Assembly (NCBI GenBank): GCA_964615205.1
Contig: CAZTQA010000001.1
Location: 510-64,509 of the forward strand
DNA: 64,000 nt
Source of the DNA: an uncultured Candidatus Saccharibacteria bacterium
GTDB lineage: Bacteria > Patescibacteriota > Minisyncoccia > Minisyncoccales > JAGMDC01
Direction: 5' to 3'
Made by a program: the position numbers and the translations under genes. Position 1 is the stretch's first letter. Every line of letters starts with the position of its first letter. This document shows, piece by piece, positions 2,497 through 28,279 of this stretch. The notes below the pieces were generated by a model. It did not search any database, was not told the DNA's origin, and worked only from the letters and a program-made list of their open reading frames with translations.

Positions 2497-2500
2497 AGAT

Positions 2501-3569: not shown

Positions 3570-3581
3570 TCTTGTATTATA

Positions 3582-3655
3582 GCTTATTTTTTATTTTTTT
3601 GCTAAAATATAAAAAGGGTATTGACTGGCTTATTTTTTATTTTTTTGCTAAAATA
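3582..3655. repeat. Perfect 28-nt direct repeat x2 in the divergent promoter region, each copy carrying an extended -10-like TGCTAAAAT
   Basis: GCTTATTTTTTATTTTTTTGCTAAAATA occurs at about 3582-3609 and 3628-3655 (46-nt period). TGCTAAAAT lies at about 3600-3608 and 3646-3654. The second copy ends 8 nt before the ATG at 3663. Confidence 0.7.
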
Positions 3656-3662
3656 AAAGAAT

Positions 3663-14313: not shown

Positions 14314-15190
14314 TAAGGTTCTTTAGAACTGTTTTCATATCCCAAGCATGCTCTTTTGAGGCAACGATAAAGCTTTCTGCAAGTCCTATCAGATCATCTT
14401 TACTAATTGGTAAAAAGATTACTTCATTACTTTTTGCTGTTCGTCCAATAATTGAACGGTTGTCTTTGTCAAAAAGATTGTTTGCTTTTGAACAGAAATA
14501 TATCATACTTTGATAACCAACTGCTTTTTGTTTGTGTTGTAAAATAATTTCAACAAGAGTATTGCTACTTATTCTATTCATAAATAAAGGATTTTTTTCT
14601 TCAAATAATTCAAACTTGCCCAAAATTTTTTTATGAGTCGTTGTTCTGATAATTTTATACTGTTTTTCAATATCTAATTCATTTTTATTATTAAAATCTA
14701 TCAATTGTTCAATTTCCTGTTTGTTTATTAATTTATCTTTTAATGCGATTTTGAACAAATCAGATAATTCATAACCGACATAAGTATTTCCATTTTTGTG
14801 CTCTTTTATAACTATTATTTCATTATTTCTTTTAAAAATTTCAAGTATTTCATTCTTAAAATCTTTTCTACTTTTGATGTTCGTTTCTAGAATAAATTTT
14901 TTAATATCGCTAAGGATGTTTATATTTTTATAATTTAAAGATAAATTTTCTAAAATGTTCTCGCGATCTTTTGGCGTTTTAGCTGTTCGATAGTTTTTCC
15001 AGATTGTATCAATCGGCAAGAAATAAGAAATTTGCCATTCAACATAATCATTTTCAGAAAATACATTTTTCTTTACAGAAATTGGTTCGCCAAAATTATC
15101 TTTCCTTCGTTTAACTCTAATTTTGCTAGTTGCACCAGTTATTGGGATAGAACAAATAATTTTACTATTTTTTATAAAAAGCATTGACAT
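14303..15190 (-). CDS. Hypothetical protein; candidate cognate restriction endonuclease
   Basis: 295-aa ORF convergent with the methyltransferase, 3' ends overlapping by 11 nt. Visibly very AT-rich. I could find no nuclease motif, so the call rests on context only. Confidence 0.35.
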   Translation of the reverse strand: MSMLFIKNSKIICSIPITGATSKIRVKRRKDNFGEPISVKKNVFSENDYVEWQISYFLPIDTIWKNYRTAKTPKDRENILENLSLNYKNINILSDIKKFILETNIKSRKDFKNEILEIFKRNNEIIVIKEHKNGNTYVGYELSDLFKIALKDKLINKQEIEQLIDFNNKNELDIEKQYKIIRTTTHKKILGKFELFEEKNPLFMNRISSNTLVEIILQHKQKAVGYQSMIYFCSKANNLFDKDNRSIIGRTAKSNEVIFLPISKDDLIGLAESFIVASKEHAWDMKTVLKNLIKN

Positions 15191-15465: not shown

Positions 15466-16416
15466 ATGAAAAAAGAATCTCCTTTGTCACAATTGAATAT
15501 TTTAAAACAATGCAAAAAATACGGACTGCCCTTATGGCAATGTCCCCAATTTTTATTTTTAATAATGGGTCTCGTAACTATTTTTACAGCTGTGACTACC
15601 TATACTATAGGAACACGGCTTTTCGGAGATCCGGAAACAGTGGCTTTGATTGTTCTTGGCTTATCCGCGGTTTTATTTATGCTTTCCTTTGTTATTAATC
15701 ACAGCTTGGAAAAACTGGCTGAAGCCAGTCGTATGAAATCAGAGTTTGTAAGAATAGTTTCTCATCAATTAAGAGCTCCTTTAACTAATTTAAAATGGGG
15801 GATTGAAATGATAATTTCCCGAGGCTTGGAACACGTGGAAGAAAAACAGCTTCTGAATTTTATTAAGATGTTAAGAGAGAACAGCAATAGAATGGAAGAA
15901 TTAATTAATGATTTATTGATAGTTTCCAGGATGGAGAAAGATGGTTTGCCGGAGAAAAAAGAGAAAGTTGATTTTGGAGAGATCGTTAAGAATTTTATTT
16001 CTGAATTTGAGGCTTTTGCTATTTCTTCCAATATTAAATTAAAATTCGATTATTCTAAAGATATACCTTCTATCACGGCTGATCCTGGTCAGGTAAAATT
16101 AGTTGTGGAAAACTTTATAGATAACGCTATTCGCTATACTAAAAAAGGAGGCGTTGTAAAAATTAGATTAAAAAAAACCAAAAAGAATATTCATTTTGAA
16201 GTTGAAGATGAAGGAGTAGGTATTCCTAAGGAAGATCAAAAATATATTTTTGATAAATTTTTCCGAGCAAGCAATGCCATGAAATATCAAACCCAAGGAA
16301 GCGGTTTAGGCCTTTTTATCGCTAAATCCGTAGCAGATAAAATGAAAGGAGAAATCGGATTTAAATCAAAAGAGAGCAAAGGTTCCACTTTCTGGGTTAA
16401 AATACCTATAAAATAA
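15466..16416 (+). CDS. Sensor histidine kinase (2 TM + HisKA + HATPase_c)
   Basis: H-box SEFVRIVSHQLRAPLT, N-box VVENFIDNAIRYT, G-boxes EDEGVGIP and GSGLGLFIAK. Confidence 0.85.
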   Translation: MKKESPLSQLNILKQCKKYGLPLWQCPQFLFLIMGLVTIFTAVTTYTIGTRLFGDPETVALIVLGLSAVLFMLSFVINHSLEKLAEASRMKSEFVRIVSHQLRAPLTNLKWGIEMIISRGLEHVEEKQLLNFIKMLRENSNRMEELINDLLIVSRMEKDGLPEKKEKVDFGEIVKNFISEFEAFAISSNIKLKFDYSKDIPSITADPGQVKLVVENFIDNAIRYTKKGGVVKIRLKKTKKNIHFEVEDEGVGIPKEDQKYIFDKFFRASNAMKYQTQGSGLGLFIAKSVADKMKGEIGFKSKESKGSTFWVKIPIK

Positions 16417-16424
16417 TATCTATG

Positions 16425-16479
16425 AATTACGAATTAATACGAATATGCGAATTTGTACATTCGTAAACTGTTCGTAATT
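16425..16479. promoter_or_regulatory. Array of TACGAAT motifs (3 direct, 2 inverted) forming a nested imperfect palindrome between the kinase and receiver genes
   Basis: TACGAAT at 16428 and 16438, TGCGAAT at 16446, ATTCGTA at 16459, GTTCGTA at 16470. Outer arms 16425-16434 / 16470-16479 and inner arms 16446-16452 / 16459-16465 can pair. Confidence 0.4.
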
Positions 16480-16490
16480 AGTAGAAAGCT

Positions 16491-16862
16491 ATGAAGACAA
16501 TTCTTTTTATCGAAGACGAATCTGCTCTTCAAAAAACCTTTGGTAAGGTTTTAGAACAAGAGGGTTTCCAGGTTATTTCTGCTCTGGATGGAGATGTAGG
16601 TTTAAAGTTGGCTAAACTAAGGAGGCCGGATTTAATTTTATTAGACTTGATTCTGCCTAAGCTTAACGGGTTTGAGGTATTGCAGGAGATTAAGCAAGAT
16701 TCAGAACTGCAAAGCATTCCAGTTATTGTTCTGACTAATTTGGAAACTATGGACAATGTTGATAGAGCTATTGAATTAGGAGCTAAAACCTATTTAGTCA
16801 AAGCCAATTATACTCTTAAGGAAGTAATTAATAAAGTAAAGGAAACCCTTGGCGAAGAATAA
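16491..16862 (+). CDS. Stand-alone response regulator receiver protein (CheY-like)
   Basis: 123 aa. Acidic pocket IEDE, phospho-acceptor in LILLDLILP, VIVLTN, KTYLVK. No output domain. Confidence 0.85.
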   Translation: MKTILFIEDESALQKTFGKVLEQEGFQVISALDGDVGLKLAKLRRPDLILLDLILPKLNGFEVLQEIKQDSELQSIPVIVLTNLETMDNVDRAIELGAKTYLVKANYTLKEVINKVKETLGEE

Positions 16863-16867
16863 TCTTT

Positions 16868-18643
16868 ATGAGGGTAGAACCCGGACAATTAAAAGCTTTT
16901 CTTATAGACGCCAATATAGTTACTGATGTCCAGTTTGAAAAGCTTTATATAAAAGCTAAAAAAGCCGGTAAAGAGATCGGCCAAGTTTTAATTTCCGAGG
17001 GATTAATCAGCGAAGAGGACTTAATTAAATTAAAAGCCTATATTTTAGGTGTTCCTTTTGTAGATCTAGAAAAGGAAACCATTACTCCGGAAATTTTAAA
17101 AATTATTCCTGAACCCATTGCCAGAACTCATAATATTGTAGCTTTCCGAAAAAAGGAAAATAATCTGGAAGTAGCTATGCTTGATCCCAATGATTTGCAG
17201 ACAATTGATTTCATCCGAAAAAAAGCAGGATTGAAAATTCTGCCCCGTCTTACTTCTCCTGCCAGCATTAAAAAAGTGCTTCAGCAGTACCAAAAAACTC
17301 TTAAAGCTGAATTCGGTGATATTATTTTAGACCAGGTAAAAGATCTTTCCAGACCGAAAATTGGGATAGAGATGAAATCGATCAAAGAGGAGAAAAAAGA
17401 AGAAAAGAAAGAGGATCTAAAGAAAACAGCTGAAGAGATGCCGGTAATCAGGATTGTAGACACTTTACTCAAACACGCTATTCTTCAGAGATCTTCTGAC
17501 ATTCATATCGAACCCACAGAAAAAGAAGTCATTGTCCGTTACCGCATTGATGGTATTTTGCGGGATGCTATGACTCTGCCCTTACAAGTCACTTCAGGAA
17601 TTGTGGCGCGAATTAAAGTTCTCTCTAATTTAAAATTAGACGAACATCGTCTTCCCCAAGACGGGCGTTTTAAGGTTGAAAGTGAGGATTACAAATATTC
17701 AGTCAGAGTGTCTATTCTTCCGGTTTTTAGCGGTGAGAAAATCGTTATGCGTTTGTTGGCAGAAACCTCTAAAAGTTTTAGTTTGGAGGAATTAGGTTTA
17801 CAGGGTGGGACTTTAGAAAATGTTCAAACAAATATTAGAAGGCCGGTGGGTATGATTTTAGTCACTGGTCCTACTGGTTCTGGAAAAACAACCACTCTCT
17901 ATTCAATTTTGGAAATTCTTAATACTCCTGAAGTGAATATATCCACCATTGAAGATCCCATTGAATATCAAATTCCCAGAATAAACCAAACTCAAGTTAT
18001 GCCAAAGATTGGTTTAACTTTTTCCAATGGGCTTCGTTCCCTGGTAAGACAGGATCCGGATATAATTATGGTGGGTGAAATTAGAGATAAGGAAACCGCT
18101 GGACTAGCAATTAATGCTGCTTTAACCGGGCACATGGTTTTGTCTACTCTGCATACCACTAATGCTGCCGGCGCCCTTCCTCGTTTAATAGATATGGAAG
18201 CAGAACCTTTTTTGATTGCTTCTACTCTTAATGTGATTATTGCCCAACGCTTGGTAAGATGTTTCTGCGACGACAAAAAACCTTATAAGCTAACTGATTT
18301 AGAGATGAAAAGCTTGTCAAGATACTGCGATTTGGATAGAATAACAGATATTTTAAGACAAGAAAAAGTAATTAAGAAAAATGAGAATATTAAAGATGTG
18401 CAGTTCTATAAACCAGTGCCTTCTAAAAACTGTCCGGACGGCTATCGAGGCAGAAAAGGAATTTATGAGGTTCTGCCAGTAAATGAAACAATTAAAGAAT
18501 TAATTATGAAAGGAGCTAATTCAAGCCAGATTCAGAATCAAGCCCAAAAAGAAGGTATGATAACTATGATTGAAGACGGCCTTATTAAAGCTGCCCAGGG
18601 AGTGACTAGTTTAGAAGAGGTTTTAAGAGTAATTAAAGAATAA
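16868..18643 (+). CDS. pilB: Type IV pilus assembly ATPase PilB (GspE family)
   Basis: T2SSE N-terminal domain, Walker A GPTGSGKTTTLYS, Asp box, Walker B IIMVGEIRD, His box TGHMVLSTLHT. Confidence 0.9.
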   Translation: MRVEPGQLKAFLIDANIVTDVQFEKLYIKAKKAGKEIGQVLISEGLISEEDLIKLKAYILGVPFVDLEKETITPEILKIIPEPIARTHNIVAFRKKENNLEVAMLDPNDLQTIDFIRKKAGLKILPRLTSPASIKKVLQQYQKTLKAEFGDIILDQVKDLSRPKIGIEMKSIKEEKKEEKKEDLKKTAEEMPVIRIVDTLLKHAILQRSSDIHIEPTEKEVIVRYRIDGILRDAMTLPLQVTSGIVARIKVLSNLKLDEHRLPQDGRFKVESEDYKYSVRVSILPVFSGEKIVMRLLAETSKSFSLEELGLQGGTLENVQTNIRRPVGMILVTGPTGSGKTTTLYSILEILNTPEVNISTIEDPIEYQIPRINQTQVMPKIGLTFSNGLRSLVRQDPDIIMVGEIRDKETAGLAINAALTGHMVLSTLHTTNAAGALPRLIDMEAEPFLIASTLNVIIAQRLVRCFCDDKKPYKLTDLEMKSLSRYCDLDRITDILRQEKVIKKNENIKDVQFYKPVPSKNCPDGYRGRKGIYEVLPVNETIKELIMKGANSSQIQNQAQKEGMITMIEDGLIKAAQGVTSLEEVLRVIKE

Positions 18644-18653: not shown

Positions 18654-19646
18654 ATGAAAAAAAGAATTTTAACAGGAGACAGACCTACAGGACCATTGCA
18701 TTTAGGGCATTATGTTGGTTCTTTGGAAAACCGGGTTAAACTTCAGGATGAATACGAATGCTTTTTTATTATCTCTGATTATGAATTTTTAACAGACCAC
18801 TTGAACCAAACTAAAGAATTAAGTAAAAATGTGGAAAATATAGTTTTAGATTATCTTTCAGTGGGAATTGATTCCCGAAAAGCAGTTATTTTTTTGGAAT
18901 CCAAGATTCCTCAGATTTCCGAGCTTAGTTTCCTTTTTTCTATGTTGGTAAGTTTGTCTCGGGTTCAGAGAAATCCTACTATTAAAGAAGAACTTAAAAG
19001 TCGAGGAATAAGTAAAGCCAGTTACGGTTTTATTGGCTGGCCTATTGCCCAAGCAGCTGATATCCTTTGCGTAAGAGCTAATTTGGTACCAGTGGGTGAA
19101 GATCAGCTTTCCCATATCGAGCAGACTCGGGAAATAGCCAGGGATTTTAACCGTATTTTTGGCAAGGTTTTTCCTATGCCTGAAGCTTTAGTAAGCCGGG
19201 TTCCTCGTTTACCGGGCTTAGATGGAAGAAAAATGTCTAAGAGCTTAGGCAATGCTATTTTTCTTTCTGATTCTTCTGAACAAGTAGAGGAGAAAGTAAA
19301 AAAGGCCATTACTGATCCTAAACGTATTCATAGCACAGACAAAGGTCATCCTGATGTCTGTAATATTTTTAAATATTATCAAGCATTTGCCAGAGATAGA
19401 GTTGACAAAATTGAAGAAAAATGTAAAAAGGGGGAAATTGGATGTACAGCTTGTAAAAAAGAGATAGCTCAAGTTATAAACGAGTTTTTAGAGCCCATTA
19501 GAAAAAAAAGAAGATTCTATCAGAAAAAGAAAACACTAGTTAAAGAAATTTTAGAAGCCGGTAATAGAAAGACTCAAAAAGAAGCTGCTGAAACCTTGAA
19601 AATAGTTAAACAAAAAATGCATCTTGATTATGAAAACCTTCTATAA
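18654..19646 (+). CDS. trpS: Tryptophanyl-tRNA synthetase
   Basis: 330 aa class I aaRS. HIGH-type TGPLHLGHYVG, KMSKS, GEDQ. Confidence 0.9.
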   Translation: MKKRILTGDRPTGPLHLGHYVGSLENRVKLQDEYECFFIISDYEFLTDHLNQTKELSKNVENIVLDYLSVGIDSRKAVIFLESKIPQISELSFLFSMLVSLSRVQRNPTIKEELKSRGISKASYGFIGWPIAQAADILCVRANLVPVGEDQLSHIEQTREIARDFNRIFGKVFPMPEALVSRVPRLPGLDGRKMSKSLGNAIFLSDSSEQVEEKVKKAITDPKRIHSTDKGHPDVCNIFKYYQAFARDRVDKIEEKCKKGEIGCTACKKEIAQVINEFLEPIRKKRRFYQKKKTLVKEILEAGNRKTQKEAAETLKIVKQKMHLDYENLL

Positions 19647-20709
19647 TTCAAAAAAAATTCTAAAGCTTTTTAATATTTTTGTTCCAGAAAAGCAAGAAGA
19701 TATTAATTCCTTTTCTGAAAAAGTAAATAAGCTTATTAATCCGGTTATCAAACAACTACTCACCTCTTATGTTGATAAAAAAAACAAAGAGGTTGTTTTT
19801 TACCAAATTGAAGTAGGAGGGAAAAGATTAAGGCCGGCCCTGGCTATGATTTGCTGCAAGATGCTGAGAGGCAAGATTAAAGATGTCATATATCCGGCTG
19901 CCGGCTTGGAAATCTTGCATAATTATTCTTTAATTATTGACGATATTATTGATAACAGCCAGAAAAGAAGAGGTGAGCCAACTTGTTGGGTGAAATTCGG
20001 TAGTTCTGTGAGCCAGTGTATCGGGGTTGACTATTCAGCAGCTATTTTTCAGTCAGCTAAAAATTCTAAAGACCCGACTAAAATTTCAGAAATTTTTTCT
20101 ACTACCTTAAAAGAAATAGTTGATGGTGAAATTATGGATATGCTTTTTGAGCAAAGAGGAAGAGAGAACGAGCCATATATTGTTAAAAATAGGTATAAAA
20201 AGATTAATGAAAAGGATTATCTGTATATGATAAACAAGAAAACCTCGGCTTTGTTTCGAAGTTGTTGCGAAATCGGGGGCATTTGCGCTGATGCTAATCA
20301 AAAACAGCTTGAAGCTTTAAGAGAATATGGCTTGAATATAGGTATTGCTTTTCAAGTTAAAGATGACATTTTGGATATTTTCGGCAAGGAAAGAAAATTC
20401 GGAAAGAAAATCGGAAAAGACATTATGGAGAGAAAAAGAGGGAATATAGTTGTTCTTTTGGCTTTGAAGCAGCTCAATTCCAGTGATAAAAACGAACTTT
20501 CCGAGATTTTGAAGAAAGATAGAATCAGTCGGAAAAATGTTAAAAAAGCAGTAGCCATAATTGAAAAAACTAATGCTAAAAACTTAGCTTTTCAATTCGG
20601 GGAAAAATATATTCAGAAAGCCAAAGATAACTTGGATTTGCTTCCCCATAATAAATGGAATCAAATTTTAAAACAGCTTACAGAATTCACCCTCACCCGC
20701 GAAAAATAA
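19624..20709 (+). CDS. Polyprenyl diphosphate synthase (GGPP/FPP synthase family)
   Basis: First Asp-rich motif LIIDDIIDNSQKRRG, second FQVKDDILD, GGKRLRP. Confidence 0.85.
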   Translation: MIMKTFYNSKKILKLFNIFVPEKQEDINSFSEKVNKLINPVIKQLLTSYVDKKNKEVVFYQIEVGGKRLRPALAMICCKMLRGKIKDVIYPAAGLEILHNYSLIIDDIIDNSQKRRGEPTCWVKFGSSVSQCIGVDYSAAIFQSAKNSKDPTKISEIFSTTLKEIVDGEIMDMLFEQRGRENEPYIVKNRYKKINEKDYLYMINKKTSALFRSCCEIGGICADANQKQLEALREYGLNIGIAFQVKDDILDIFGKERKFGKKIGKDIMERKRGNIVVLLALKQLNSSDKNELSEILKKDRISRKNVKKAVAIIEKTNAKNLAFQFGEKYIQKAKDNLDLLPHNKWNQILKQLTEFTLTREK

Positions 20710-20760
20710 AAGGAGCTAAGCTCCTTTTGGAATAACTCAAAATGATTTGAGTATTTTTTT
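20710..20760 (+). terminator. Two tandem hairpin terminators after the polyprenyl synthase gene
   Basis: AAGGAGC-TAA-GCTCCTT then TTGG (20710-20729). ACTCAAA-ATGA-TTTGAGT followed by ATTTTTTT (20735-20760). Confidence 0.6.
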
Positions 20761-20909
20761 CTAATGGGGTAGAATTAAACAATGGCGGAAAAAGACACCT
20801 CTTTGCTTTCTTATTATGGTTTTACCAAGGCAGACCAGAAAAAATACCCGGTCATCTCGGGTATAGTTTTAAAAAATAGACATTAATAAAGGAAGTTTGT
20901 AAAAAACAA

Positions 20910-22040
20910 ATGAATAGAATTTATCAAACTATTATTATCGGTGCAGGACCTGCAGGGTTGATAGCGGGTAGACATTTAAAAGATTCTTTAATTTTAGATC
21001 AAAAACAAGAAATTGGTAAACCGGTACAATGTGGAGAAGGAATTAGCAGAGATGCTCTTAAAATACATAATATAGAACCAGATTCTTCCTGGATTTCTTG
21101 TGACATTCATAGGGTTGAAAGAATAATGCCGAACGGTAAAAGAATAGGTAAATTTCATAAGGAAGCAATAGGATATATTCTAGATAGAACTGCTTTCGAA
21201 AAATTCTTAGCGAGTACTGTCAAGGCTGAGATTAAATTAAAAAGCAAAGTTGTTGATTTAAATAAAGAAAACAATATTTGGTGTGTTAAAACGCAAAATG
21301 GAGAAATATTTAAATCTAAATATATTATTGGAGCCGATGGACCAAATTCTATAGTACGAGAAAAGGTTTTTAAAGAGAGAATAAAGATCCTCCCAGCAGT
21401 TGAATATTTATTAGAATTAGAGAAAGAAATAAAAGTAGATACCTTGGAAATTTATTTAAATAATGAAAAATATCCTCAGGGATATGCTTGGATTTTTCCT
21501 AAATCAAGAAATACGGCTAATATAGGTATTGGTGGACAAGGGGATCTTTTAGAAAAATTTAGGGAATTTTTAGAAGAGGAGGTGAGAATTAAATATCAAA
21601 ATTATAAAATTCTAGAAAATAGAAGTGGAGTTGTTCCTTTTGCTAAACCCTCAACAATTATTAAAGATGGAGTATTATTAGTCGGTGATGCCGCTGGTTT
21701 TACAAATAGCGTTTTTAAGGCAGGAATAAGTAGAGCGATGTGGTCTGCAAGGATTTGCAGTCAACTTATTTTAGATAATGATATAAGTTCTCATAAGCAC
21801 AAAACAAGAGTAATTTTGTTTACCGGTTCTAAACTAGATAGAGCAGGAAGTATATTGTATGCTTTTAGCAATGAATCACTCAATGAATTAGGAGGTTTTT
21901 TAGAGAATAAGAATGCTTCTTATTATAAAAATATATTAGTAATAATGAAAATGTTATTTAGTCATTCTTTAAGAAAGGATATTTTGAAAATGTTTGAATT
22001 TATTTCAATCTGGAAAAAATACAAAAAATATAGTTGGTAA
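20910..22040 (+). CDS. Geranylgeranyl reductase family FAD-dependent oxidoreductase
   Basis: IIIGAGPAGLIAG dinucleotide fold, CGEGIS, IIGADGPNSIVR, GYAWIFPK...ANIGIGG. These are signatures of the archaeal/bacterial GGR family. Confidence 0.75.
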   Translation: MNRIYQTIIIGAGPAGLIAGRHLKDSLILDQKQEIGKPVQCGEGISRDALKIHNIEPDSSWISCDIHRVERIMPNGKRIGKFHKEAIGYILDRTAFEKFLASTVKAEIKLKSKVVDLNKENNIWCVKTQNGEIFKSKYIIGADGPNSIVREKVFKERIKILPAVEYLLELEKEIKVDTLEIYLNNEKYPQGYAWIFPKSRNTANIGIGGQGDLLEKFREFLEEEVRIKYQNYKILENRSGVVPFAKPSTIIKDGVLLVGDAAGFTNSVFKAGISRAMWSARICSQLILDNDISSHKHKTRVILFTGSKLDRAGSILYAFSNESLNELGGFLENKNASYYKNILVIMKMLFSHSLRKDILKMFEFISIWKKYKKYSW

Positions 22041-22912
22041 TAATTAAAATAATCATGAATTTTTCACAAGCCTTGAAATTAATCTTTAATGAATTTCTTT
22101 ACGGTGGACATTTAATCTCACTAGGAGCTGTTGGCATAGTTTTTTCGTCGGCTATTTTATTAGAAATAAAAATAGATTTGGATTTTTTGATAATTGTATA
22201 TTTATTTAGTTATAATTCTATTTTATATAATCGGTATAGAGAATTTAGAATTGATTATTTAACTAATCCAGAGAGGACTAAAAATTTAAGAAAATATTTT
22301 AAATATATTTCTTTAATTCTTTGTTTTTCCATACTGATTACTACAGGTATATTTATTTTTAATAATAAATTTTTGGCTTTATTCTTTTTGATTCTATTAT
22401 CTTTATTGACTTTCTTATATACAGAGTATTTTAAAAATATAACTAAAAATATATTTATTTTTAAGAATATTTATTTCTCTTTTGTCACGGGTTTATTATT
22501 AATATTATTGGTCCTTTATTATTCTTATCCAATTTTGAATTTCATTTTTTTTATAATTTTCATTTTTGTTTTTCTAAGAATGTTTATCAATACAGTGTTT
22601 CTTGATATCAAAGATGTTAAAGGTGATAATAAAATAAGGTTAAAGACAATTCCAATTTTATTTGGCGAAACCAAAACATTAAAAATTTTACAATTATTAA
22701 GTATGATATCAATATTACCAATACTTATTGGGGTTTATCTTGGTTTTTTACATCTTTTTTCTTTAGTTCTTATTTTCATAGTTCCTTATTCTTTTTACTA
22801 TTTTTTTGAGTCTAAAAAGAGAAAAAATTTTTATTTAGTAAATTATTTTTTAGCTGATTTAGAGTTTATTTTATGGCCAATTTTACTTTTATTGTCTAAA
22901 AATTTAATATGA
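22034..22912 (+). CDS. UbiA-superfamily membrane prenyltransferase
   Basis: About 8 hydrophobic helices. Second Asp-rich motif DIKDVKGD...LKTIPILFG. The first motif is the variant N-RYR-E-FRI-D (NxxxExxxD). Overlaps the GGR stop. Confidence 0.65.
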   Translation: MVIIKIIMNFSQALKLIFNEFLYGGHLISLGAVGIVFSSAILLEIKIDLDFLIIVYLFSYNSILYNRYREFRIDYLTNPERTKNLRKYFKYISLILCFSILITTGIFIFNNKFLALFFLILLSLLTFLYTEYFKNITKNIFIFKNIYFSFVTGLLLILLVLYYSYPILNFIFFIIFIFVFLRMFINTVFLDIKDVKGDNKIRLKTIPILFGETKTLKILQLLSMISILPILIGVYLGFLHLFSLVLIFIVPYSFYYFFESKKRKNFYLVNYFLADLEFILWPILLLLSKNLI

Positions 22913-24540
22913 TCGAATTAATTAATTTCTTATTCATAAATAAATTTATTATTATTTTAGTAAGTAGTTTTGGAATCTATCTGGCTTTTTGGGTTTATTA
23001 TGCTGATCGAAAAGCGAAAACGAATCAATTATTCACTTTGATGATGCTTTTTGCTCTTTCTTGGATTATTCTTTGTTATTTCAGTGGGATATTAATTAAT
23101 AATTTAGGTTTATCATTATTTTTGGCAAGACTAGCTTACGGGATAGCTATTCTTTTTTTCATACCCTTTTATTTTTTCTCTTTATGGTTTATCAAGAAAA
23201 AAGAAGAGGTTCGGCTTTTAAAGATTTTTATTCCGATAGGAAGTTTAACTATCTTTTTTCTATCTGTTTTTACTGATTTTATGGCAGAAAAAATGATTCC
23301 TATAAATATAATAGGAATTTCTATGGGTGTAGCTCCCGTTATAGGTGTTGGAAAATTTATTTATTTTGGTTTTGTATTCTTTGTCGCCGTATTAGTTGTT
23401 GTTCGTCTTATTAAGGCATATTTTAAAGTATCGAAAATTGAGAAGTTAAAATTACAATATTTCTTAATCGGCATTATAATTTTTGTAATTGCTAATCTTG
23501 TTTTTAATGTTATTTTTGCTTCGTGGGTGGGGGATGCGAGATATTATCAACTTGGGAATTATTCGGCCATATTTTTGTTGGCGTTTACGGCGTATGCGAT
23601 TGTGAAAAGGGAATTGTTCGGGATTAAGGTTATTGTAACCTCCATATTTGTAGTTTTGATTGCGATTCTGCTTGCCTTAGATATGCTGTTGTTTACAGAA
23701 GTTTTCTTAATTAAAGCACTGAAAACTGCGGCTTTATTGATATTCCTTGTCTTTGGCAGAATCTTGATAAACAGCGTTGCAAATGAAGTTAAAAGAAGAG
23801 AGGAGTTGGAGAAATTAAGCCGAGCTAAGTCAGAGTTTATTTCTATGGCTTCCCACCAATTGAGAACCCCTTTGACTGCTATTAAAGGATATAGCTCTTT
23901 GATGATGGAAGGCACTTACGATAAATCAAAAGCAAAACAAAAGAAAGTTTTAAAGAATATTTTTATTTCTACAGAAAGATTGATTAAAATCGTAAATGAC
24001 TTGTTGAATCTTTCCAGAATTGAATTAGGTAGATTAGAGATAGAAAAAGAGCCGGTAAGGATTGAAGAATTGGCAGAGAGCGTTTTTAAAGAAATGAAGT
24101 CGCGCGCCAAAGAAAAAGAAATAAAACTTTTATATGAGAAGCCGAAGCAAGAGTTACCGGAACTAAATCTTGATTCTTTGAAAATAAGGCAGGCCATATT
24201 TAATTTAGTTGACAATGCCATAAAGTATACAGAAGATGGAGAAATAAAGATTATTATTGAAAAAATAAAAGATAAGATTAGGATTACCATTAGCGACACA
24301 GGCAGGGGTTTTAGCAGCGAAGAGGCCAAAAGATTATTTGAGCTTTTTATTAGAGGAGAAGCGGGCATAGATACTTTTGTGGAAGGAACAGGGATTGGTC
24401 TCAATGTTGCCAGAAAATTTGTTGAGCTTCACGGGGGCAATATTAGAGCAGAATCAGAAGGAAAAAATAAGGGAGCTAAATTTTACATTGAACTTCCCAT
24501 TGTTTCCAAAGAAGCAGAAGAATTTATTAAAAGAATATAA
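22909..24540 (+). CDS. Sensor histidine kinase with polytopic N-terminal membrane domain
   Basis: About 7 TM helices, then H-box SEFISMASHQLRTPLT, N-box NLVDNAIKYT, DTGRGF, GTGIGLNVAR. Confidence 0.8.
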   Translation: MIELINFLFINKFIIILVSSFGIYLAFWVYYADRKAKTNQLFTLMMLFALSWIILCYFSGILINNLGLSLFLARLAYGIAILFFIPFYFFSLWFIKKKEEVRLLKIFIPIGSLTIFFLSVFTDFMAEKMIPINIIGISMGVAPVIGVGKFIYFGFVFFVAVLVVVRLIKAYFKVSKIEKLKLQYFLIGIIIFVIANLVFNVIFASWVGDARYYQLGNYSAIFLLAFTAYAIVKRELFGIKVIVTSIFVVLIAILLALDMLLFTEVFLIKALKTAALLIFLVFGRILINSVANEVKRREELEKLSRAKSEFISMASHQLRTPLTAIKGYSSLMMEGTYDKSKAKQKKVLKNIFISTERLIKIVNDLLNLSRIELGRLEIEKEPVRIEELAESVFKEMKSRAKEKEIKLLYEKPKQELPELNLDSLKIRQAIFNLVDNAIKYTEDGEIKIIIEKIKDKIRITISDTGRGFSSEEAKRLFELFIRGEAGIDTFVEGTGIGLNVARKFVELHGGNIRAESEGKNKGAKFYIELPIVSKEAEEFIKRI

Positions 24541-26678
24541 TGGATAAGCAGTATCAAGCGGAGAAAATTGAAGAAAAAATTTATGACCTTTGGGAAAAGG
24601 GCGGTTTTTTTAATCCAGACAAACATAAAGCAAAACTTAAGAAAAGTTTTTCCATTGTTTTACCGCCGCCCAACATTACCGGCTCTTTGCATATAGGCCA
24701 CGCCTTGAATGCCACTATTCAGGATATTATTATAAGGTGGAAAAGAATGTCTGGCTTTAAGACTCTCTGGGTGCCCGGCATTGATCATGCCGGAATTGCC
24801 ACCCAGAATGTAGTTGAAAAGAAACTTAAGAAAGAAGGCAAGACAAGATTTGATTTAGGAAGAGAAAATTTTGTTAAAGAAGTTTGGAAATGGAAAAAAG
24901 AGAAAGGGGATACTATTTTAAAACAGCTTAGAAAGATGGGCGTTTCCTGCGACTGGTCCAGAACTACATTCACCATGGATGACCATTATATTGAAGCAGT
25001 CAAACAGGCTTTTCTGCATTACTATAATAAGGGCATGATTTACAGAGGGGAAAGGCCGGTTAATTGGTGCCCGCGCTGCCAGACCAGTTTGTCTGATTTG
25101 GAAGTAGAATATAAAGAAGAGAAAAGCAAACTTTGGTATTTAAAATACCCTTTCAAAGAAGATAAAACAAAGTTTGTTGTAGTGGCGACTACTCGGCCGG
25201 AAACAATGCTGGGCGATACAGCTGTGGCTGTTAATCCAAGAGATAAAAGGTATAAGGATAAGATTGGCAAAACTTTAATCTTGCCCATAATTAAGAGAGA
25301 AATACCTATTATTACTGACCAAGCCATAGATCCTAAATTCGGCACAGGAGCTATTAAAGTAACGCCAGCTCATGACTTTGTGGATTACCAAATAAGTCAG
25401 AGAAACAATTTGGAAATGGTTAAAGTCATTGATGAAAAAGGAGAAATAGAAGGAGTGCCTGTTCAAGAAACCAGAAAAAACATTTTGGAAAAATTAGAAA
25501 AATTAGGATTAATTGAGAAAACTGAAGATTATATCCATAAAGTTCCCCAGTGTTATCGTTGCGGTACTGTTTTAGAAATAATTCCTTCCAAACAATGGTT
25601 CTTGAAAATGGACAAATTAGCCAAGTTAGCCATTAAACCAGTAAAGAAAGGGGAGATAAAATTTCATCCTAATAAATGGGAAAAGCCGTATTTTGAATGG
25701 CTGGAGAAAACCTTGGATTGGTGCATTTCCAGACAGCTTTGGTGGGGACATCGGCTTCCTGTCTGGCAGTGCCAGAATCAAAAAGAAAAATATTTTGCTT
25801 CTTTAGATAAACCAAAAAAATGTTCTATCTGCGGGAAATGCCAACCCAAGCAATCAGAAGATGTTTTAGATACTTGGTTTTCTTCTGCTCTCTGGCCTTT
25901 CGCTGTTTTTGGATGGCCTCAAAAAACTAAACATCTGAAAATATTTTATCCTACTGATGTTTTAAGTACGGCGAGAGACATTATTAATTCTTGGGTGGCT
26001 AGAATGGTTTTTTCTTCGCAGGAATTCAATAAAAAAAATCCTTTCCAAAATATTATTATTCATCCTACTGTTCTTACCAAAGACGGAAGAAGAATGTCCA
26101 AGTCATTAGGAACAGGCGTAGATCCTTTGGATTTAATAGATAAATATGGTGCGGATGCGGTTCGTTTCGGATTAGCTTGGGAAATAACCGGATTGCAGGA
26201 TATTAGATTTACTGAAGATAACATAATAGCGGGCAAGAAGTTTTGCAATAAATTATGGAATGCTTCCCGGTTTGTAACTTTTCAGCTTGGAAGAAAGAAA
26301 TTTGATGATAAAAAAAAGCCCAAATCAATTACCGCTCAAGACAAAAAAATACTTAAAGATTTTGAAAAATTAGTTCACTCTAATACAGATAATTTAAACC
26401 AATTTCGTTTTGCTAAAGCTATTCAAAATACCTACCATTTTTTCTGGCATAATTTCTGCGATATCTATATTGAAAAATCAAAGATTCAAATTAAAGAAGC
26501 TAATTCAGAAAAAGAAGCTGACAATACAAGACAGATCCTCGTTTATGTCTTAATTAATTCTTTAAAAATGCTCCATCCTTTCATTCCATTTGTCACAGAA
26601 GAAATATACCAGAACTTTCCTTTAAAGCAAAAAAAGACATTGATTATTGAGGATTGGCCGTGTTATAATAGAAGATAG
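24540..26678 (+). CDS. valS: Valyl-tRNA synthetase (short form, 712 aa)
   Basis: PPPNITGSLHIGHALN, TTRPETMLGDTAVAV, KMSKSLGTGVDP. No long C-terminal coiled-coil is apparent. Confidence 0.9.
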   Translation: MDKQYQAEKIEEKIYDLWEKGGFFNPDKHKAKLKKSFSIVLPPPNITGSLHIGHALNATIQDIIIRWKRMSGFKTLWVPGIDHAGIATQNVVEKKLKKEGKTRFDLGRENFVKEVWKWKKEKGDTILKQLRKMGVSCDWSRTTFTMDDHYIEAVKQAFLHYYNKGMIYRGERPVNWCPRCQTSLSDLEVEYKEEKSKLWYLKYPFKEDKTKFVVVATTRPETMLGDTAVAVNPRDKRYKDKIGKTLILPIIKREIPIITDQAIDPKFGTGAIKVTPAHDFVDYQISQRNNLEMVKVIDEKGEIEGVPVQETRKNILEKLEKLGLIEKTEDYIHKVPQCYRCGTVLEIIPSKQWFLKMDKLAKLAIKPVKKGEIKFHPNKWEKPYFEWLEKTLDWCISRQLWWGHRLPVWQCQNQKEKYFASLDKPKKCSICGKCQPKQSEDVLDTWFSSALWPFAVFGWPQKTKHLKIFYPTDVLSTARDIINSWVARMVFSSQEFNKKNPFQNIIIHPTVLTKDGRRMSKSLGTGVDPLDLIDKYGADAVRFGLAWEITGLQDIRFTEDNIIAGKKFCNKLWNASRFVTFQLGRKKFDDKKKPKSITAQDKKILKDFEKLVHSNTDNLNQFRFAKAIQNTYHFFWHNFCDIYIEKSKIQIKEANSEKEADNTRQILVYVLINSLKMLHPFIPFVTEEIYQNFPLKQKKTLIIEDWPCYNRR

Positions 26679-26682
26679 AGTT

Positions 26683-27054
26683 ATGGCTAAAAAGATACTT
26701 TTAATAGAAGACGAGGATCTTTTGTCAGACATGTATATAGACAAGCTGAAAAAGGCTAAGTTTAAGGTCTTTTCTGCTTTTGACGCTGAAGATGGTTTAA
26801 GATTAGCTGTAGAAGAAAAGCCGGATTTGATTATTTTAGATATTATTCTTCCTAAAAAAACAGGACTTGAATTCTTGGAAGAAATGCGCTGCAATAAAGA
26901 AACATCTTCCCTTTCAGTGGTTGTTTTATCCAATTATGACAATCCCAAAGCTCGCAAAAAAGCTCGCCAGTTAGGAGCTTTAGATTATTTAATTAAAACT
27001 GATTTTACCCCTTCAGCTTTAATAAAAAGAATTAAGCAATACATAGCTGTTTAA
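26683..27054 (+). CDS. Stand-alone response regulator receiver protein
   Basis: ORF track starts at 26647. The likelier start is MAKKILLIEDED at 26683, just after the valS stop. LIILDIILP, VVVLSN and DYLIK are receiver motifs. Confidence 0.8.
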   Translation: MAKKILLIEDEDLLSDMYIDKLKKAKFKVFSAFDAEDGLRLAVEEKPDLIILDIILPKKTGLEFLEEMRCNKETSSLSVVVLSNYDNPKARKKARQLGALDYLIKTDFTPSALIKRIKQYIAV

Positions 27055-27070: not shown

Positions 27071-28279
27071 ATGATTAAAGAAACAATAAAAAAATTTATT
27101 CCTGATTTTGTGCTCTCTTGGTATCACCTTTCCTTGGCTGGCTTAGGTGCTTTTTTATATCTTTTTCCAAGCAAGAAGATAAAAGTAATAGGAGTGACAG
27201 GCACTAATGGAAAATCAACTGTAATCTATTTTATTTCTGCCATTTTAGAAGAAGCCGGATTTAAAACAGCTTCCATTTCTTCCATTAAATTTAAAATCAA
27301 AGACAAGGAATGGAGAAATAATTTAAAGATGACTATGCCTGGCCGTTTTAAGCTTCAGAAATTCTTAAGGCAGGCAGTTAAATCCGGATGCGAGTATGTT
27401 CTAATAGAAGTTACTTCTGAAGGCATAAAACAGCACCGCCATCGCTTTATTGGTTTTGATACAGCTGTTTTTACCAATCTTACGCCAGAGCATATTGAAA
27501 GCCATAAAGGATTTGAAAACTACAAAAAAGCCAAAGGCCAGCTTTTTAAGGCAGCCAAAAATATTCATATTATTAACATTGAAGACAAAAACGCAAATTA
27601 TTTTTTACATTTTCCGGCCAAGAAAAAGATAACTTATGGATTATTTAAAGGCGACATTAATCTTTCCAATACTCCGGTTAAACTGGGTTTAACAGGAGAG
27701 TTCAATAAATATAATGCTTTGGCAGCTGCAGCTGTGGGCTTATCGCAGAAAATTAATTTGGAAACCTGCCAAAAAGCCATAGAAAAAATTAATTACATCC
27801 CTGGCAGAATGGAAACAGTTATTTCTTCTCCTTTTAGGGTAATAGTTGATTATGCTTTCACCCCTGCTGCTTTGGAAAAGGTTTATCAAACTTTTAAACC
27901 TGAAAACAAAAGAATGATTTGTGTTTTGGGTGCTTGCGGAGGCGGCAGAGACAAGTGGAAAAGGCCAGTTTTGGGAGAGTTGGCTGGAAAATACTGCGAT
28001 AAGGTTATTGTTACCAACGAAGATCCTTATGATGAAAATCCAATGGAAATTATAGAACAAGTAGCAAAAGGAGCAGGAGATAAAGCTGAAAAAATAGAGG
28101 ACAGGCGGGAAGCTATCAGAAAAGCGCTTCAATTAGCAGAGCCAGAAGATACGGTTATTGTTACTGGCAAGGGATGCGAACCCTGGATTTGCGTTGCCAA
28201 CGGCAAGAAGATTCCCTGGGATGATAGGGCAGTAGTGAAAGAAGAATTTGGAAAATACTGGACAGAAGGTAATAAATAG
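27071..28279 (+). CDS. Mur ligase family protein (MurE-like, lacking the usual N-terminal domain)
   Basis: P-loop VTGTNGKST, FTNLTPEHIESH, central and C-terminal Mur ligase domains (NEDPYDENP). N-terminal hydrophobic segment; only 402 aa. Confidence 0.7.
   Translation: MIKETIKKFIPDFVLSWYHLSLAGLGAFLYLFPSKKIKVIGVTGTNGKSTVIYFISAILEEAGFKTASISSIKFKIKDKEWRNNLKMTMPGRFKLQKFLRQAVKSGCEYVLIEVTSEGIKQHRHRFIGFDTAVFTNLTPEHIESHKGFENYKKAKGQLFKAAKNIHIINIEDKNANYFLHFPAKKKITYGLFKGDINLSNTPVKLGLTGEFNKYNALAAAAVGLSQKINLETCQKAIEKINYIPGRMETVISSPFRVIVDYAFTPAALEKVYQTFKPENKRMICVLGACGGGRDKWKRPVLGELAGKYCDKVIVTNEDPYDENPMEIIEQVAKGAGDKAEKIEDRREAIRKALQLAEPEDTVIVTGKGCEPWICVANGKKIPWDDRAVVKEEFGKYWTEGNK

Follow-up and report, generated by a model that had tools for sequence, protein, structure and literature searches.

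The best-matching solved relative of the prenyltransferase described here is the DGGGP synthase (DGGGPS) of M. jannaschii, in which mutation of N62/D66/D70, Y125/K130 and D180/D183/D187 abolishes activity (PMC9385802). In a published survey, a DGGGPS-type enzyme was present in all sampled archaea save three DPANN bins (PMC6431249). On the bacterial side, CPR bacteria have no fatty-acid synthesis and rely on scavenged lipids (PMC12281837), Paceibacteria parasitise methanogens (PMC9600506, PMC10936435, PMC12281837), and close homologues of both GGGPS and DGGGPS have been reported for one Parcubacteria genome (PMC7852524). For the linkage of a UbiA-family gene with a sensor histidine kinase, which is the subject of this analysis, no description was found in the literature searched.

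Gene content of the locus

The locus lies in a 64-kb stretch of DNA (the window) from a low-GC, Parcubacteria/Paceibacteria-like bacterium, and the rest of the window carries CPR-style housekeeping genes. A sequence-only reading had placed three isoprenoid genes at 19624-22912 in a setting devoid of genes for respiration, photosynthesis or fatty-acid synthesis; all three ORFs were recovered, and none of the latter genes was found in the 64 kb. Judged by its sequence, the region specifies a short-chain isoprenyl diphosphate synthase (IDS) that looks active, a geranylgeranyl reductase (GGR)-family enzyme and a UbiA-fold prenyltransferase (UbiA). The features are as follows.

19624..20709, + strand: short-chain trans-isoprenyl diphosphate synthase, IDS (Pfam, motifs, PDB relatives)
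20707..20864, no strand assigned: structured spacer with three hairpins (terminator-like scan, RNA fold)
20910..22040, + strand: geranylgeranyl reductase family FAD enzyme, GGR (TIGR02032, Pfam GGR_cat, PDB 3oz2)
22055..22912, + strand: UbiA-superfamily intramembrane prenyltransferase, 285 aa, core gene of the proposed module (Pfam, AF2, Foldseek)
22909..24540, + strand: polytopic sensor histidine kinase (Pfam HisKA_7TM, HisKA, HATPase_c)
24540-26678: ValRS, between the kinase and the receiver in this genome
26647..27054, + strand: stand-alone receiver (CheY-like) response regulator, 135 aa (Pfam Response_reg only)
27071-28279: Mur ligase gene

The IDS matches Pfam polyprenyl_synt (E 9e-62) and probably starts at ATG 19630, the position called by JGI. 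Both motifs noted earlier are present in its translation, the FARM as DDIID with a Tyr at -5 (ILHNYSLII-DDIID) and the SARM as DDILD. Its chain length, which we take to be C15-C20, is called from this Tyr by the Ohnuma -5 rule, and the enzyme likely supplies a C15-C20 prenyl diphosphate donor. In NCBIfam, it scores best against the models for archaeal IdsA and GGPP synthase but stays under both cut-offs, and the closest solved relatives are the polyprenyl synthetase 4dhd (225 bits) followed by the P. horikoshii GGPPS 1wy0, i.e., enzymes of Pyrobaculum and Pyrococcus. The GGR clears the curated GGR family model TIGR02032 (174.4 bits versus a cut-off of 158.8), matches Pfam GGR_cat, and has the Thermoplasma digeranylgeranylglycerophospholipid reductase 3oz2 as its closest PDB entry (E 1.5e-28). 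GxGxxG, the catalytic Cys in QCGEG, GYxWxFPK (GYAWIFPK) and LVGDAAG are conserved, and the probable role of the enzyme is to reduce C=C bonds in the prenyl chain.

The two genes are 200 nt apart, and this spacer divides the IDS from the GGR-UbiA-kinase transcription unit. The gap and the two hairpins described earlier were found again (20707-20729 and 20844-20864), together with a third one at 20735-20752 followed by T7. The RNA fold of the spacer is stronger than that of shuffled sequence (z -3.2), a weak promoter-like site is located at 20747-20775, and an Rfam search of the window found no family. JGI calls a 34-aa ORF within the spacer (20782-20886), for which the gene calls of related loci hold no counterpart.

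The UbiA protein passes the Pfam UbiA model (63.3 bits versus a cut-off of 34.2), and its AlphaFold2 model is a confident UbiA fold (pLDDT 95, pTM 0.92) with DGGGPS, ApUbiA and AfUbiA as the top Foldseek matches. In the profile search against the PDB, the best match was M. jannaschii DGGGPS 6m31 (E 6.6e-7), and no NCBIfam equivalog was reached (best 39 bits versus a cut-off of 288). Residues N59/E63/D67, Y122/K127 and D184/D187/D191 align to MjDGGGPS N62/D66/D70, Y125/K130 and D180/D183/D187, and the predicted catalytic machinery is intact. The first motif reads Y-N-R-Y-R-E-F-R-I-D. The NxxxExxxD pattern, singled out earlier as non-canonical, is thus present, but it is a trait of the family and not a peculiarity of this protein: of 45 homologues, 29 carry E at the middle position, 9 carry D and 7 another residue (acidic in 38/45), and the final motif D and the R seven residues on are invariant. 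The full set of invariant residues is D67, R74, K127, K137, D187, D191 and T198. The family comprises 127 clusters at E<1e-30 (507 at E<1e-10), and the protein falls into a subfamily that is uncharacterised and occurs in Paceibacteria-type CPR, Methanobacteriaceae and Methanocella.

The previously suggested overlap of GGR and UbiA hinges on an alternative TTG start at 22034. Because the likely start is ATG 22055, where the public gene calls and all homologues begin and which lies 14 nt past the GGR stop, these genes probably do not overlap; the real 4-nt overlap is the one between UbiA and the kinase (22909-22912). In this compact genome, 4-nt overlaps are frequent between unrelated genes, and translational coupling by itself is therefore weak evidence. 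The proposed AT-rich block holds for GGR (GC3 0.186) and UbiA (0.168), the window averaging 0.28 (sd 0.04), but does not extend to the kinase, which has 0.29-0.32.

The kinase has an N-terminal HisKA_7TM membrane domain (about 22909-23790; 35.3 bits, cut-off 28.6), followed by HisKA (71.3 bits) and HATPase_c (90.8 bits). The AF2 model of residues 1-294 (pLDDT 90.7) is a helical bundle that has nothing beyond a 20-residue beta-hairpin loop and lacks an extracytoplasmic domain; a search for solved relatives found none. The CheY-like receiver at 26647..27054 probably pairs with the kinase as its cognate regulator. A stand-alone receiver is found within the operon in seven loci: homologues with 35-51% identity lie directly 3' of the UbiA-linked kinase in five (L006, L011, L012, L028, L055), and related receivers immediately upstream in two (L052 and L017).

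Linkage of UbiA and a sensor kinase in CPR and archaea

The conserved unit is UbiA with an adjoining sensor histidine kinase, and it is found in both domains. The kinase adjoins UbiA in 28 of 29 informative CPR loci, and the pair is present in 17 of the 23 archaeal-labelled ones. For 24 non-redundant CPR loci, the kinase ORF starts -10 to +14 nt from the UbiA stop; one methyltransferase gene intervenes in four further loci, and one locus has a GAF-type kinase with a 4-nt overlap with the UbiA gene. Flanking genes vary from locus to locus, and the pair is retained at UbiA identities down to about 30-40%. On the archaeal side, a multi-TM PAS kinase adjoins UbiA in 13 Methanobacteriaceae and 3 Methanocella loci (one with two pairs), lying either 5' of UbiA in the same orientation or divergently from it. 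The short contig L047, labelled TM6, groups inside Methanobacteriaceae and yielded no kinase. The sensor domains of CPR and Methanobacteriaceae are homologous (hhalign 96.7%, E 3e-10), and that of Methanocella has no detectable relation to either. The pairing therefore outlasts changes of gene order, strand, kinase core (HisKA versus HisKA_2) and sensor module.

UbiA distances correlate more closely with those of the kinase membrane domain (r 0.73) than with those of the catalytic domain (r 0.49), with partial correlations of 0.65 versus 0.28, although the common composition of membrane proteins may inflate the correlation. Some family members have no kinase neighbour (L049, L056, and the tandem UbiA pairs of L019/L040/L045), and 7TM proteins of the kinase type occur without a UbiA neighbour in L059 and L060. 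No UbiA-kinase fusion was found in the top 150 representatives of the family, none of which exceeds 384 aa. The inconstant sensor module suits a regulator beside its target equally with a sensor beside a ligand synthase. The sequence-only reading had treated the kinase as a bystander, and it is the single gene nearly always kept beside UbiA.

The accessory genes vary by clade (IDS, GGR, a PRK11445/GGR-like flavoprotein and a CMAS/UbiE-like SAM methyltransferase) and are all isoprenoid-chain-acting. Of about 30 CPR loci, 17 have an IDS, of one of two types, within or close to them. GGR is a clade-specific accessory gene, positioned immediately 5' of UbiA only in the small clade of the window (the window, L004, L008 and L009); in L010, it lies about 4 kb upstream. 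An IDS-GGR-UbiA trio is thus not a conserved unit, with GGR immediately 5' of UbiA only in that clade and IDS missing at many loci.

Possible roles of the pair

The UbiA-kinase pairing in CPR and methanogens points to lipid-linked signalling and not to an archaeal-style membrane-lipid pathway. Tentatively, and with somewhat less than even confidence, we propose that the locus may encode a self-contained lipid-making and lipid-sensing signalling module, with UbiA as a ligand-making or co-sensing accessory of the kinase, a reading based on gene context and homology throughout. The IDS would provide the C15-C20 prenyl diphosphate, UbiA would move the chain onto some membrane-embedded acceptor via its conserved Mg2+/diphosphate site, and GGR would then saturate it; the resulting tailored isoprenoid lipid would be a minor component of the membrane rather than one of its bulk lipids. 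The all-membrane sensor domain would read this lipid, or the prenyl-diphosphate pool feeding it, and the kinase would in turn phosphorylate the stand-alone receiver.

An unlikely, though still credible, explanation is a DesK-type circuit of membrane homeostasis, in which the kinase would sense a physical property of the membrane and set the lipid output of UbiA, IDS and GGR, so that its neighbour would be a regulatory target and not a ligand synthase. An all-membrane sensor without an extracytoplasmic domain fits this scheme, the adjoining enzymes all build or tailor lipid chains, and survival of the pairing through a sensor-module swap is expected if the regulatory link alone counts. Moreover, CPR are unable to synthesise fatty acids and live on scavenged lipids (PMC12281837), so that they could benefit from a small lipid additive of their own making. 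However, the associated response regulators are receivers alone, with no DNA-binding domain, and CPR receiver queries found no regulator beside the archaeal pairs. In addition, it would be unusual for a bulk-lipid enzyme and a kinase to be co-transcribed at fixed stoichiometry, and pure regulator-target adjacency does not predict that UbiA co-varies more with the sensor than with the catalytic domain.

We consider it rather doubtful that UbiA serves an envelope carrier lipid, either by acting on polyprenyl phosphate (cf. decaprenyl-phosphate phosphoribosyltransferase) or by making, with GGR, a saturated dolichol-like carrier, with the kinase as an envelope-stress sensor of the carrier cycle. 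Peptidoglycan and division genes (those for MraZ, PBP, MraY, MurL and Mur ligase) do occur within 7 kb of the UbiA-kinase pair in about 10 of 30 CPR loci, with the order UbiA-kinase-IDS-MraZ...PBP in L007, L010, L014 and L022, and the window has its Mur ligase gene at 27071-28279; nevertheless, the nearby IDS may be a mere housekeeping FPP synthase beside the dcw cluster. R74, K127 and K137, all basic and invariant, are possible phosphate-binding residues, yet the mycobacterial membrane phosphoribosyltransferase (8j8j, 8j8k) gives weak Foldseek matches (E 0.6-0.8) compared with DGGGPS, ApUbiA and AfUbiA. Neither heme O nor decaprenyl-phosphate enzyme families, including the phosphoribosyltransferase, appear among the NCBIfam matches of UbiA at E <= 0.01, and the protein thus does not group with the bacterial functions that had been named as contrary to an archaeal-type role. 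Methanobacteriaceae build pseudomurein on polyprenyl carriers, which would suit a carrier function, whereas Methanocella is not known to possess it.

It is improbable that the three genes amount to a branch of archaeal-type ether-lipid synthesis (GGPP synthase, DGGGP synthase and lipid reductase), possibly using lipid precursors taken up from an archaeal host. IDS, GGR and UbiA all have archaeal lipid-pathway enzymes as their nearest solved relatives, UbiA keeps all three DGGGPS catalytic motifs, methanogens are the only other holders of the family, and both the parasitism of Paceibacteria on methanogens and the GGGPS and DGGGPS homologues of one Parcubacteria genome would agree with such a branch. 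However, UbiA falls far short of every curated DGGGPS-type model, reaching 32-39 bits where cut-offs of 269-353 apply. Its archaeal relatives are likewise far below these cut-offs and are therefore not DGGGPS-type enzymes; methanogens carry this family as a separate gene. GGGPS, G1PDH and CarS were not detected in the window, nor in any of the five related loci annotated with Pfam, and the absence of PcrB/GGGPS and G1PDH from the window, already noticed in the sequence-only reading, holds across the ORFs scanned or with recorded Pfam hits. Furthermore, most loci are without GGR and many without IDS, and the UbiA gene is co-transcribed with a sensor kinase. From the archaeal-lipid-like trio as first proposed, the enzyme classes and the archaeal flavour of the sequences stand, but the assignment to ether lipids, quinones or chlorophyll tails is not supported.

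Finally, it is very improbable that the adjacency of UbiA and kinase has no functional basis and is left over from genome compaction and shared ancestry: unrelated genes of the window also abut or overlap (TrpRS/IDS, kinase/ValRS and ValRS/RR) and related CPR lineages supply many of the loci, but the pair is kept at low UbiA identity amid different flanking genes, two archaeal families repeat it with another gene order, strand and kinase type, and additional kinase genes are rare (about 5 matches over about 30 loci of 14 kb).

The UbiA enzyme and its isoprenoid neighbours

Judged by comparative genomics and predicted structures, the main result of this analysis is that an uncharacterised prenyltransferase of predicted UbiA fold is paired with membrane sensor kinases, and that this pairing is conserved across domains. 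The sequence-only reading had placed an archaeal-lipid-like trio at 19624-22912, and the open reading frames of all three enzymes were found there, followed by the kinase gene:

19624-20709, trans-isoprenyl diphosphate synthase, IDS (Pfam polyprenyl_synt, E 9e-62; motifs DDIID and DDILD)
20910-22040, geranylgeranyl-reductase family flavoprotein, GGR (TIGR02032, 174.4 bits against a curated cut-off of 158.8, which is passed)
22034/22055-22912, UbiA-fold prenyltransferase, UbiA (Pfam UbiA, 63.3 against 34.2 bits)
22909-24540, seven-transmembrane (7TM) sensor histidine kinase (Pfam HisKA_7TM, HisKA and HATPase_c)

UbiA starts at ATG 22055 in the public gene calls and in all homologues, which gives a protein of 285 aa. 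Thus, GGR and UbiA do not overlap, as had been supposed, but are separated by 14 nt, and the true 4-nt overlap is that between UbiA and the kinase. The protein was placed by its scores against curated models together with profile and fold matches in the PDB. Its PF01040 match spans residues 32-263 and passes the gathering threshold, and AlphaFold2 predicted a polytopic, all-helical UbiA fold (pLDDT 95.1, pTM 0.92), with which Foldseek retrieved 7bpu, 6m31, 4od4 and 4tq4 at probability 1.00 (TM 0.56-0.71). Both by profile (E 6.6e-7) and by fold, the top solved match was DGGGPS of Methanocaldococcus jannaschii (MjDGGGPS, 6m31/7bpu), an enzyme of the archaeal ether-lipid pathway, followed by ApUbiA and AfUbiA. 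The two proteins have in common the helical fold and the motifs N..D/E...D, Y....K and D..D...D (PMC9385802), and a GGPP-type donor is likely for both. In UbiA, these motifs read N59-x3-E63-x3-D67...R74, Y122-x4-K127 and D184-x2-D187-x3-D191, matching residue for residue N62/D66/D70, Y125/K130 and D180/D183/D187 of MjDGGGPS, which are required for activity (PMC9385802). Given this fold and the alignment of all three motifs, UbiA is very probably an active prenyltransferase. The first motif, which had been regarded as peculiar to this protein, is shared across the family: position 63 is E in 29, D in 9 and another residue in 7 of 45 homologues (acidic in 38/45). In the same set, D67, R74, K127, K137, D187, D191 and T198 are invariant.

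Despite this likeness, UbiA differs from DGGGPS in several respects, namely an identity of only ~18%, a first acidic residue that is mostly E, R/H instead of D after the N, linkage to a kinase, and scores of 32-39 bits where the DGGGPS-type cut-offs lie at 269-353. Among the DGGGPS models, it reached 34.3 bits with PRK12883 (cut-off 353), 32.8 with PRK12882 (296) and 19.3 with PRK12872.1-1 (278), and the archaeal members of the family, those of methanogens included, also fall far below such cut-offs with only 27-35 bits. The protein falls within none of the curated families; its highest NCBIfam score is 39 bits, where the cut-off is 288. The models for MenA (21.1 against 277), the "ubiA_other" subfamily (23.8 against 180.8) and chlorophyll synthase (21.2 against 212.3) were not reached either, and neither heme O synthase nor decaprenyl-phosphate phosphoribosyltransferase (DPPR synthase), the known bacterial functions which the sequence-only reading had set against its own proposal, appeared among the NCBIfam matches at E <= 0.01. 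As for the pathway partners, GGGPS/PcrB, G1P dehydrogenase (G1PDH) and CarS were not found in the five related loci with Pfam annotation or in the 64-kb window, from which the first and second had already been reported missing. Since the curated-model test failed and the test for pathway partners gave no clear outcome, UbiA was not filed as DGGGPS. What stands of the archaeal-lipid-like trio is therefore the enzyme classes and their archaeal affinity; the pathway assignment does not, given DGGGPS scores far below the cut-offs and the absence of the partners where they were looked for.

The IDS gene product scores 208.9 bits against PF00348 and carries both the first (FARM, DDIID) and the second (SARM, DDILD) Asp-rich motif of short-chain trans-isoprenyl diphosphate synthases. 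Its best curated models are archaeal IdsA (234.8 against 468) and GGPP_syn (208.1 against 500), with both equivalog cut-offs missed, and the closest solved structures are 4dhd and the GGPP synthase of Pyrococcus horikoshii, 1wy0. By the established chain-length rule of Ohnuma and colleagues, the product is restricted to C15-C20 when a bulky aromatic side chain stands at -5 (or -4) relative to the FARM. As the stretch ILHNYSLII|DDIID has Tyr at -5, a C15-C20 product is predicted for IDS; in some relatives, Ser or Cys takes the place of this Tyr. IDS and GGR are separated by a 200-nt spacer, which holds the two hairpins seen earlier plus a third, and folds better than shuffled sequence (z -3.2), while an Rfam search of the spacer recovered no riboswitch or RNA family. 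The JGI annotation calls a 34-aa ORF at 20782-20886 in this spacer region (20705-20912). Lacking Trp and any counterpart in the gene calls of the related loci, it was rejected as a candidate precursor of the ComX type.

GGR matches Pfam GGR_cat (E 7.9e-15). Its alignment with 3oz2, a lipid reductase from Thermoplasma (E 1.5e-28), extends along the protein and includes the equivalents of IIGAGPAG (the FAD-binding GxGxxG), QCGEG with the catalytic Cys, GYAWIFPK and LVGDAAG. The equivalog models for digeranylgeranylglycerophospholipid reductase were all missed (108.6 against 780, 102.7 against 580 and 38.4 against 700). The AT-richness attributed to the whole GGR/UbiA/kinase block holds for GGR (GC3 0.186) and UbiA (0.168), but the kinase is ordinary (0.29-0.32) when compared with the reference of 0.28 +/- 0.04 from 30 window genes.

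Spread of the family and conservation of the kinase neighbour

An exhaustive HMMER search found 1226 clusters at E<1e-3, 507 at E<1e-10 and 127 at E<1e-30, which points to a sizeable subfamily that has no name in the current curated models. Using a 12-sequence alignment as query, a scan of one genome per species gave 49 loci, distributed among Paceibacteria-type CPR bacteria, Methanobacteriaceae, Methanocella and some contigs labelled Thermoplasmatales, the archaeal ones being unexpected. In a neighbour-joining tree of UbiA, the methanogen sequences form one clade and the CPR sequences the remainder, with the tandem UbiA pairs of the "Thermoplasmatales" nesting among the latter. These tandem paralogues (L019, L040 and L045) have no kinase, and L040 also contains an NAD-dependent DNA ligase. 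At L047, a locus labelled TM6, UbiA nests among the Methanobacteriaceae. The bin labels of all four loci are probably wrong.

Gene neighbourhoods were compared using public contigs with close homologues and tblastn of the window proteins against all loci. The trio is not conserved as a unit: a GGR of the window type lies directly upstream of UbiA only in the window and in L004, L008 and L009, which make up the window's own clade, and ~4 kb off in L010, while IDS genes, of two types, occur in or near 17 of ~30 CPR loci (in 9 of the 17 directly in the cluster). L013, L015 and L028 have another flavoprotein (PRK11445/GGR-like), and in one CPR subclade (L016, L018, L023 and L027) a CMAS/UbiE-like SAM methyltransferase is encoded between UbiA and the 7TM kinase. 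This methyltransferase is 284-297 aa long and located at about 7800-8700 in each locus; its best curated models, all far under their cut-offs, are sarcosine/dimethylglycine N-methyltransferase, GPP 2-C-methyltransferase and cyclopropane fatty acid synthase.

What persists is the kinase. In 24 non-redundant CPR loci, the kinase ORF starts -10 to +14 nt from the UbiA stop, mostly with an ATGA overlap, and in four further ones the methyltransferase is the sole gene in between. L010 encodes instead a cytoplasmic GAF-GAF kinase overlapping UbiA by 4 nt. In 13 Methanobacteriaceae loci, a 7TM-PAS-HisKA_2 kinase adjoins UbiA, either ~120 nt upstream on the same strand or divergent, and in three Methanocella loci a multi-TM PAS kinase lies 0-60 nt upstream. 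At one of the Methanocella loci (L053, Methanocella sp. MCL-LM, 2226-9019), two tandem kinase-UbiA pairs lie on either side of a membrane protein that resembles CruF and belongs to a "carotenoid biosynthesis" family (PF04240, 119.6 bits); this organism is not known to make carotenoids. UbiA has no kinase neighbour in L019/L040/L045, L049 and L056. The reciprocal check failed, as HisKA_7TM-type proteins without a UbiA neighbour occur in L059 and L060, so the dependence is one-way. The genes flanking the pair otherwise vary by locus. Downstream of the kinase, the order UbiA-kinase-IDS-MraZ-...-PBP recurs in L007, L010, L014 and L022; thus, in one CPR subclade, the pair heads a division/cell-wall cluster.

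The three domains of the window kinase all pass their gathering thresholds (PF16927, 35.3 against 28.6; PF00512, 71.3 against 26.9; PF02518, 90.8 against 26.4). Residues 1-294 were modelled by AlphaFold2 as a helical bundle (pLDDT 90.7) with 7-8 TM helices, in which the biggest loop is a 20-residue beta-hairpin. As the model has no large loops, sensing must, on this prediction, take place within the membrane. Beyond a generic seven-helix likeness, Foldseek found no solved structure resembling the membrane domain, and its weak matches to GPCRs (E >= 2e-3, TM 0.3-0.5) were not taken as homology. By hhalign (96.7%, E 3e-10, 209 columns), the membrane domain of the CPR kinases is homologous to that of the Methanobacteriaceae kinases. 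For the Methanocella kinases, a relation of the membrane domain to HisKA_7TM was not detectable, and a link of UbiA to a single specific sensor domain was dropped for this reason. Across 25 CPR pairs, pairwise UbiA distances follow those of the membrane domain of the kinase (r 0.73) more closely than those of its catalytic domain (r 0.49), and the two halves of the kinase correlate at 0.44 only; with the catalytic domain controlled for, UbiA and the membrane domain retain a partial correlation of 0.65. The composition common to membrane proteins may inflate these values.

The receivers associated with UbiA-kinase loci are receiver-only proteins of 123-135 aa and do not include a DNA-binding regulator of the DesR type. 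Homologues of the stand-alone, CheY-like receiver of the window (26647-27054) directly follow the kinase in five loci and lie directly upstream of the cluster in two. In the window, a ValRS gene (within 24540-27054) sits between the 7TM kinase and the receiver, touching or overlapping both; it has been inserted there, and the receiver is the probable cognate partner of the kinase. In L004, L015 and L038, too, ValRS is encoded no more than a few kb from the UbiA-kinase pair.

Related systems and possible roles of the pair

We found no description of a linkage between UbiA and histidine kinases in the searchable literature, and the signalling censuses of bacteria and archaea that include HisKA_7TM kinases give no stimulus for them (PMC5847659, PMC6944256). 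As a system, the pair resembles BceS/BceAB, LiaS/LiaF and DesK, and more loosely UBIAD1-HMG-CoA reductase and ComQXPA, and it differs from each in defining features. BceS and LiaS are kinases without an extracytoplasmic sensor domain, encoded in many genomes alongside their membrane partners BceAB and LiaF. As with these, the adjoining membrane protein would here supply or create the stimulus of a kinase without such a domain; BceS and LiaS, however, have two TM helices and transporters or inhibitor proteins as partners, while the present kinase has 7-8 and is paired with an enzyme whose active site is intact. DesK of Bacillus subtilis has five TM helices and a HisKA_3 core, and acts via the DNA-binding regulator DesR. 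Its gene in the DesK-DesR-Des system also places an all-membrane sensor kinase beside a gene altering lipid chains (PMC8301901), but here there is a HisKA_7TM bundle, a HisKA core (HisKA_2 in archaea), a receiver without output domain and a prenyltransferase in place of a desaturase. UBIAD1, which is among the sequence and fold matches of UbiA (complex with HMG-CoA reductase, 8djk), is a UbiA-fold protein that binds geranylgeranyl diphosphate and controls its partner protein through contacts of the membrane domains. That complex, though, belongs to eukaryotic sterol regulation and involves no kinase. In ComQXPA, the isoprenylated pheromone ComX is sensed by the polytopic kinase ComP, so that a single locus combines a gene of the polyprenyl_synt family, a signal carrying an isoprenoid and a histidine kinase with many TM helices. 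Unlike there, no conserved ComX-like precursor was found, and transfer would be carried out by a UbiA-fold enzyme and not by ComQ.

We favour a small module that would make or handle a tailored isoprenoid lipid and be functionally tied to the kinase, because the active site does not vary, UbiA often comes with a dedicated donor synthase, every accessory enzyme works on the C=C bonds of isoprenoids, and a kinase stays next to UbiA even where gene order, strand, kinase core or indeed the sensor module has changed. As to the nature of the tie, our tentative proposal, for which we would claim somewhat less than even chances, is that the kinase reads the product of the module or its precursor pool, given that the associated receivers lack DNA-binding domains and that, within the kinase, it is the sensor half with which UbiA co-varies. 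A homeostasis circuit like that of DesK, in which the kinase would simply lie beside its regulatory target, seems rather unlikely in view of the same receivers. It is more speculative still, and doubtful, that UbiA provides a seven-helix receptor kinase with an isoprenoid ligand or cofactor of its own, as a "private" lipid signal, and that its sharing by Paceibacteria-type CPR bacteria and the methanogen lineages which they parasitise reflects gene exchange between host and parasite or lipid-based recognition across domains; if true, HisKA_7TM kinases would thereby gain their first ligand class. Parasitism of methanogens is documented for Paceibacteria (PMC9600506, PMC10936435, PMC12281837) and may offer a route for the spread of the family across domains. 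A carrier-lipid or cell-envelope role, to which the dcw and peptidoglycan genes within 7 kb in ~1/3 of the CPR loci would point, is about as doubtful or slightly more so.

The ether-lipid pathway proposed from the sequence can appeal to archaeal lipid enzymes being the nearest solved relatives, but we consider it improbable, since UbiA scores far below the DGGGPS models, no GGGPS, G1PDH or CarS occurs in the window or the five Pfam-annotated loci, and the methanogen members are not of the DGGGPS type while DGGGPS itself is missing from just three DPANN bins among the archaea sampled (PMC6431249). The archaeal-type lipid genes reported for one Parcubacteria genome are close GGGPS and DGGGPS homologues (PMC7852524) and thus a different family. 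Finally, chance adjacency of UbiA and the kinase, which a compact genome with many overlapping genes would make easier, is very improbable.

The finding of a UbiA-fold enzyme almost always beside HisKA_7TM kinases in two very different groups of anaerobes gives rise to a testable hypothesis, namely that an isoprenoid lipid made by the cell itself either is the signal or is required for it. It also defines a sizeable unannotated UbiA subfamily (the 127 clusters of the strictest cut-off). Moreover, CPR genomes with "GGPP synthase + GGR + DGGGPS-like" genes should not be scored on that basis as having archaeal-type membrane lipids, a correction that matters for the debate on the lipid divide.

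Host and further features of the window

The window has a low GC content (34.5%) and contains a tmRNA, many aminoacyl-tRNA synthetases, NusA, ClpP, RNase Y, pilins, PilB and a Mur ligase, a gene set typical of CPR bacteria of the Parcubacteria/Paceibacteria type; no genes for respiration, photosynthesis or fatty-acid synthesis are among its content. The lineage assignment follows from the best matches of the studied proteins, whose nearest named relatives are Parcubacteria/Paceibacterota MAGs.

An island of high GC (41-55%, the window having 34%) at 40700-41800 gave no Rfam match and spans the ORFs 40696-41355 and 41352-42092, neither of which has a recorded Pfam family. At 12991-15190, a LexA/S24-fused N6/N4 DNA methyltransferase (+) forms a restriction-modification pair with an R.Pab1-like endonuclease (-). 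The strong AT-richness of the pair (GC 26-31%, GC3 0.20) makes horizontal acquisition probable; a comparable RE_R_Pab1/methylase pair is present in L059. An isoleucyl-type tRNA synthetase of 1109 aa (49120-52449) has an internal match to His_Phos_1, the histidine-phosphatase family, in precomputed Pfam data. Downstream of two divergent pilin-like genes (N_methyl motif, 2501-3569), a giant FG-GAP/beta-propeller repeat protein of 2215 aa is encoded at 4274-10921. Just upstream of the isoprenoid genes, at 15466-18643, a second small signalling cluster encodes a soluble-looking HisKA kinase, a stand-alone receiver and PilB (MshEN and T2SSE), so stand-alone receivers may feed into type IV pilus control in this host.
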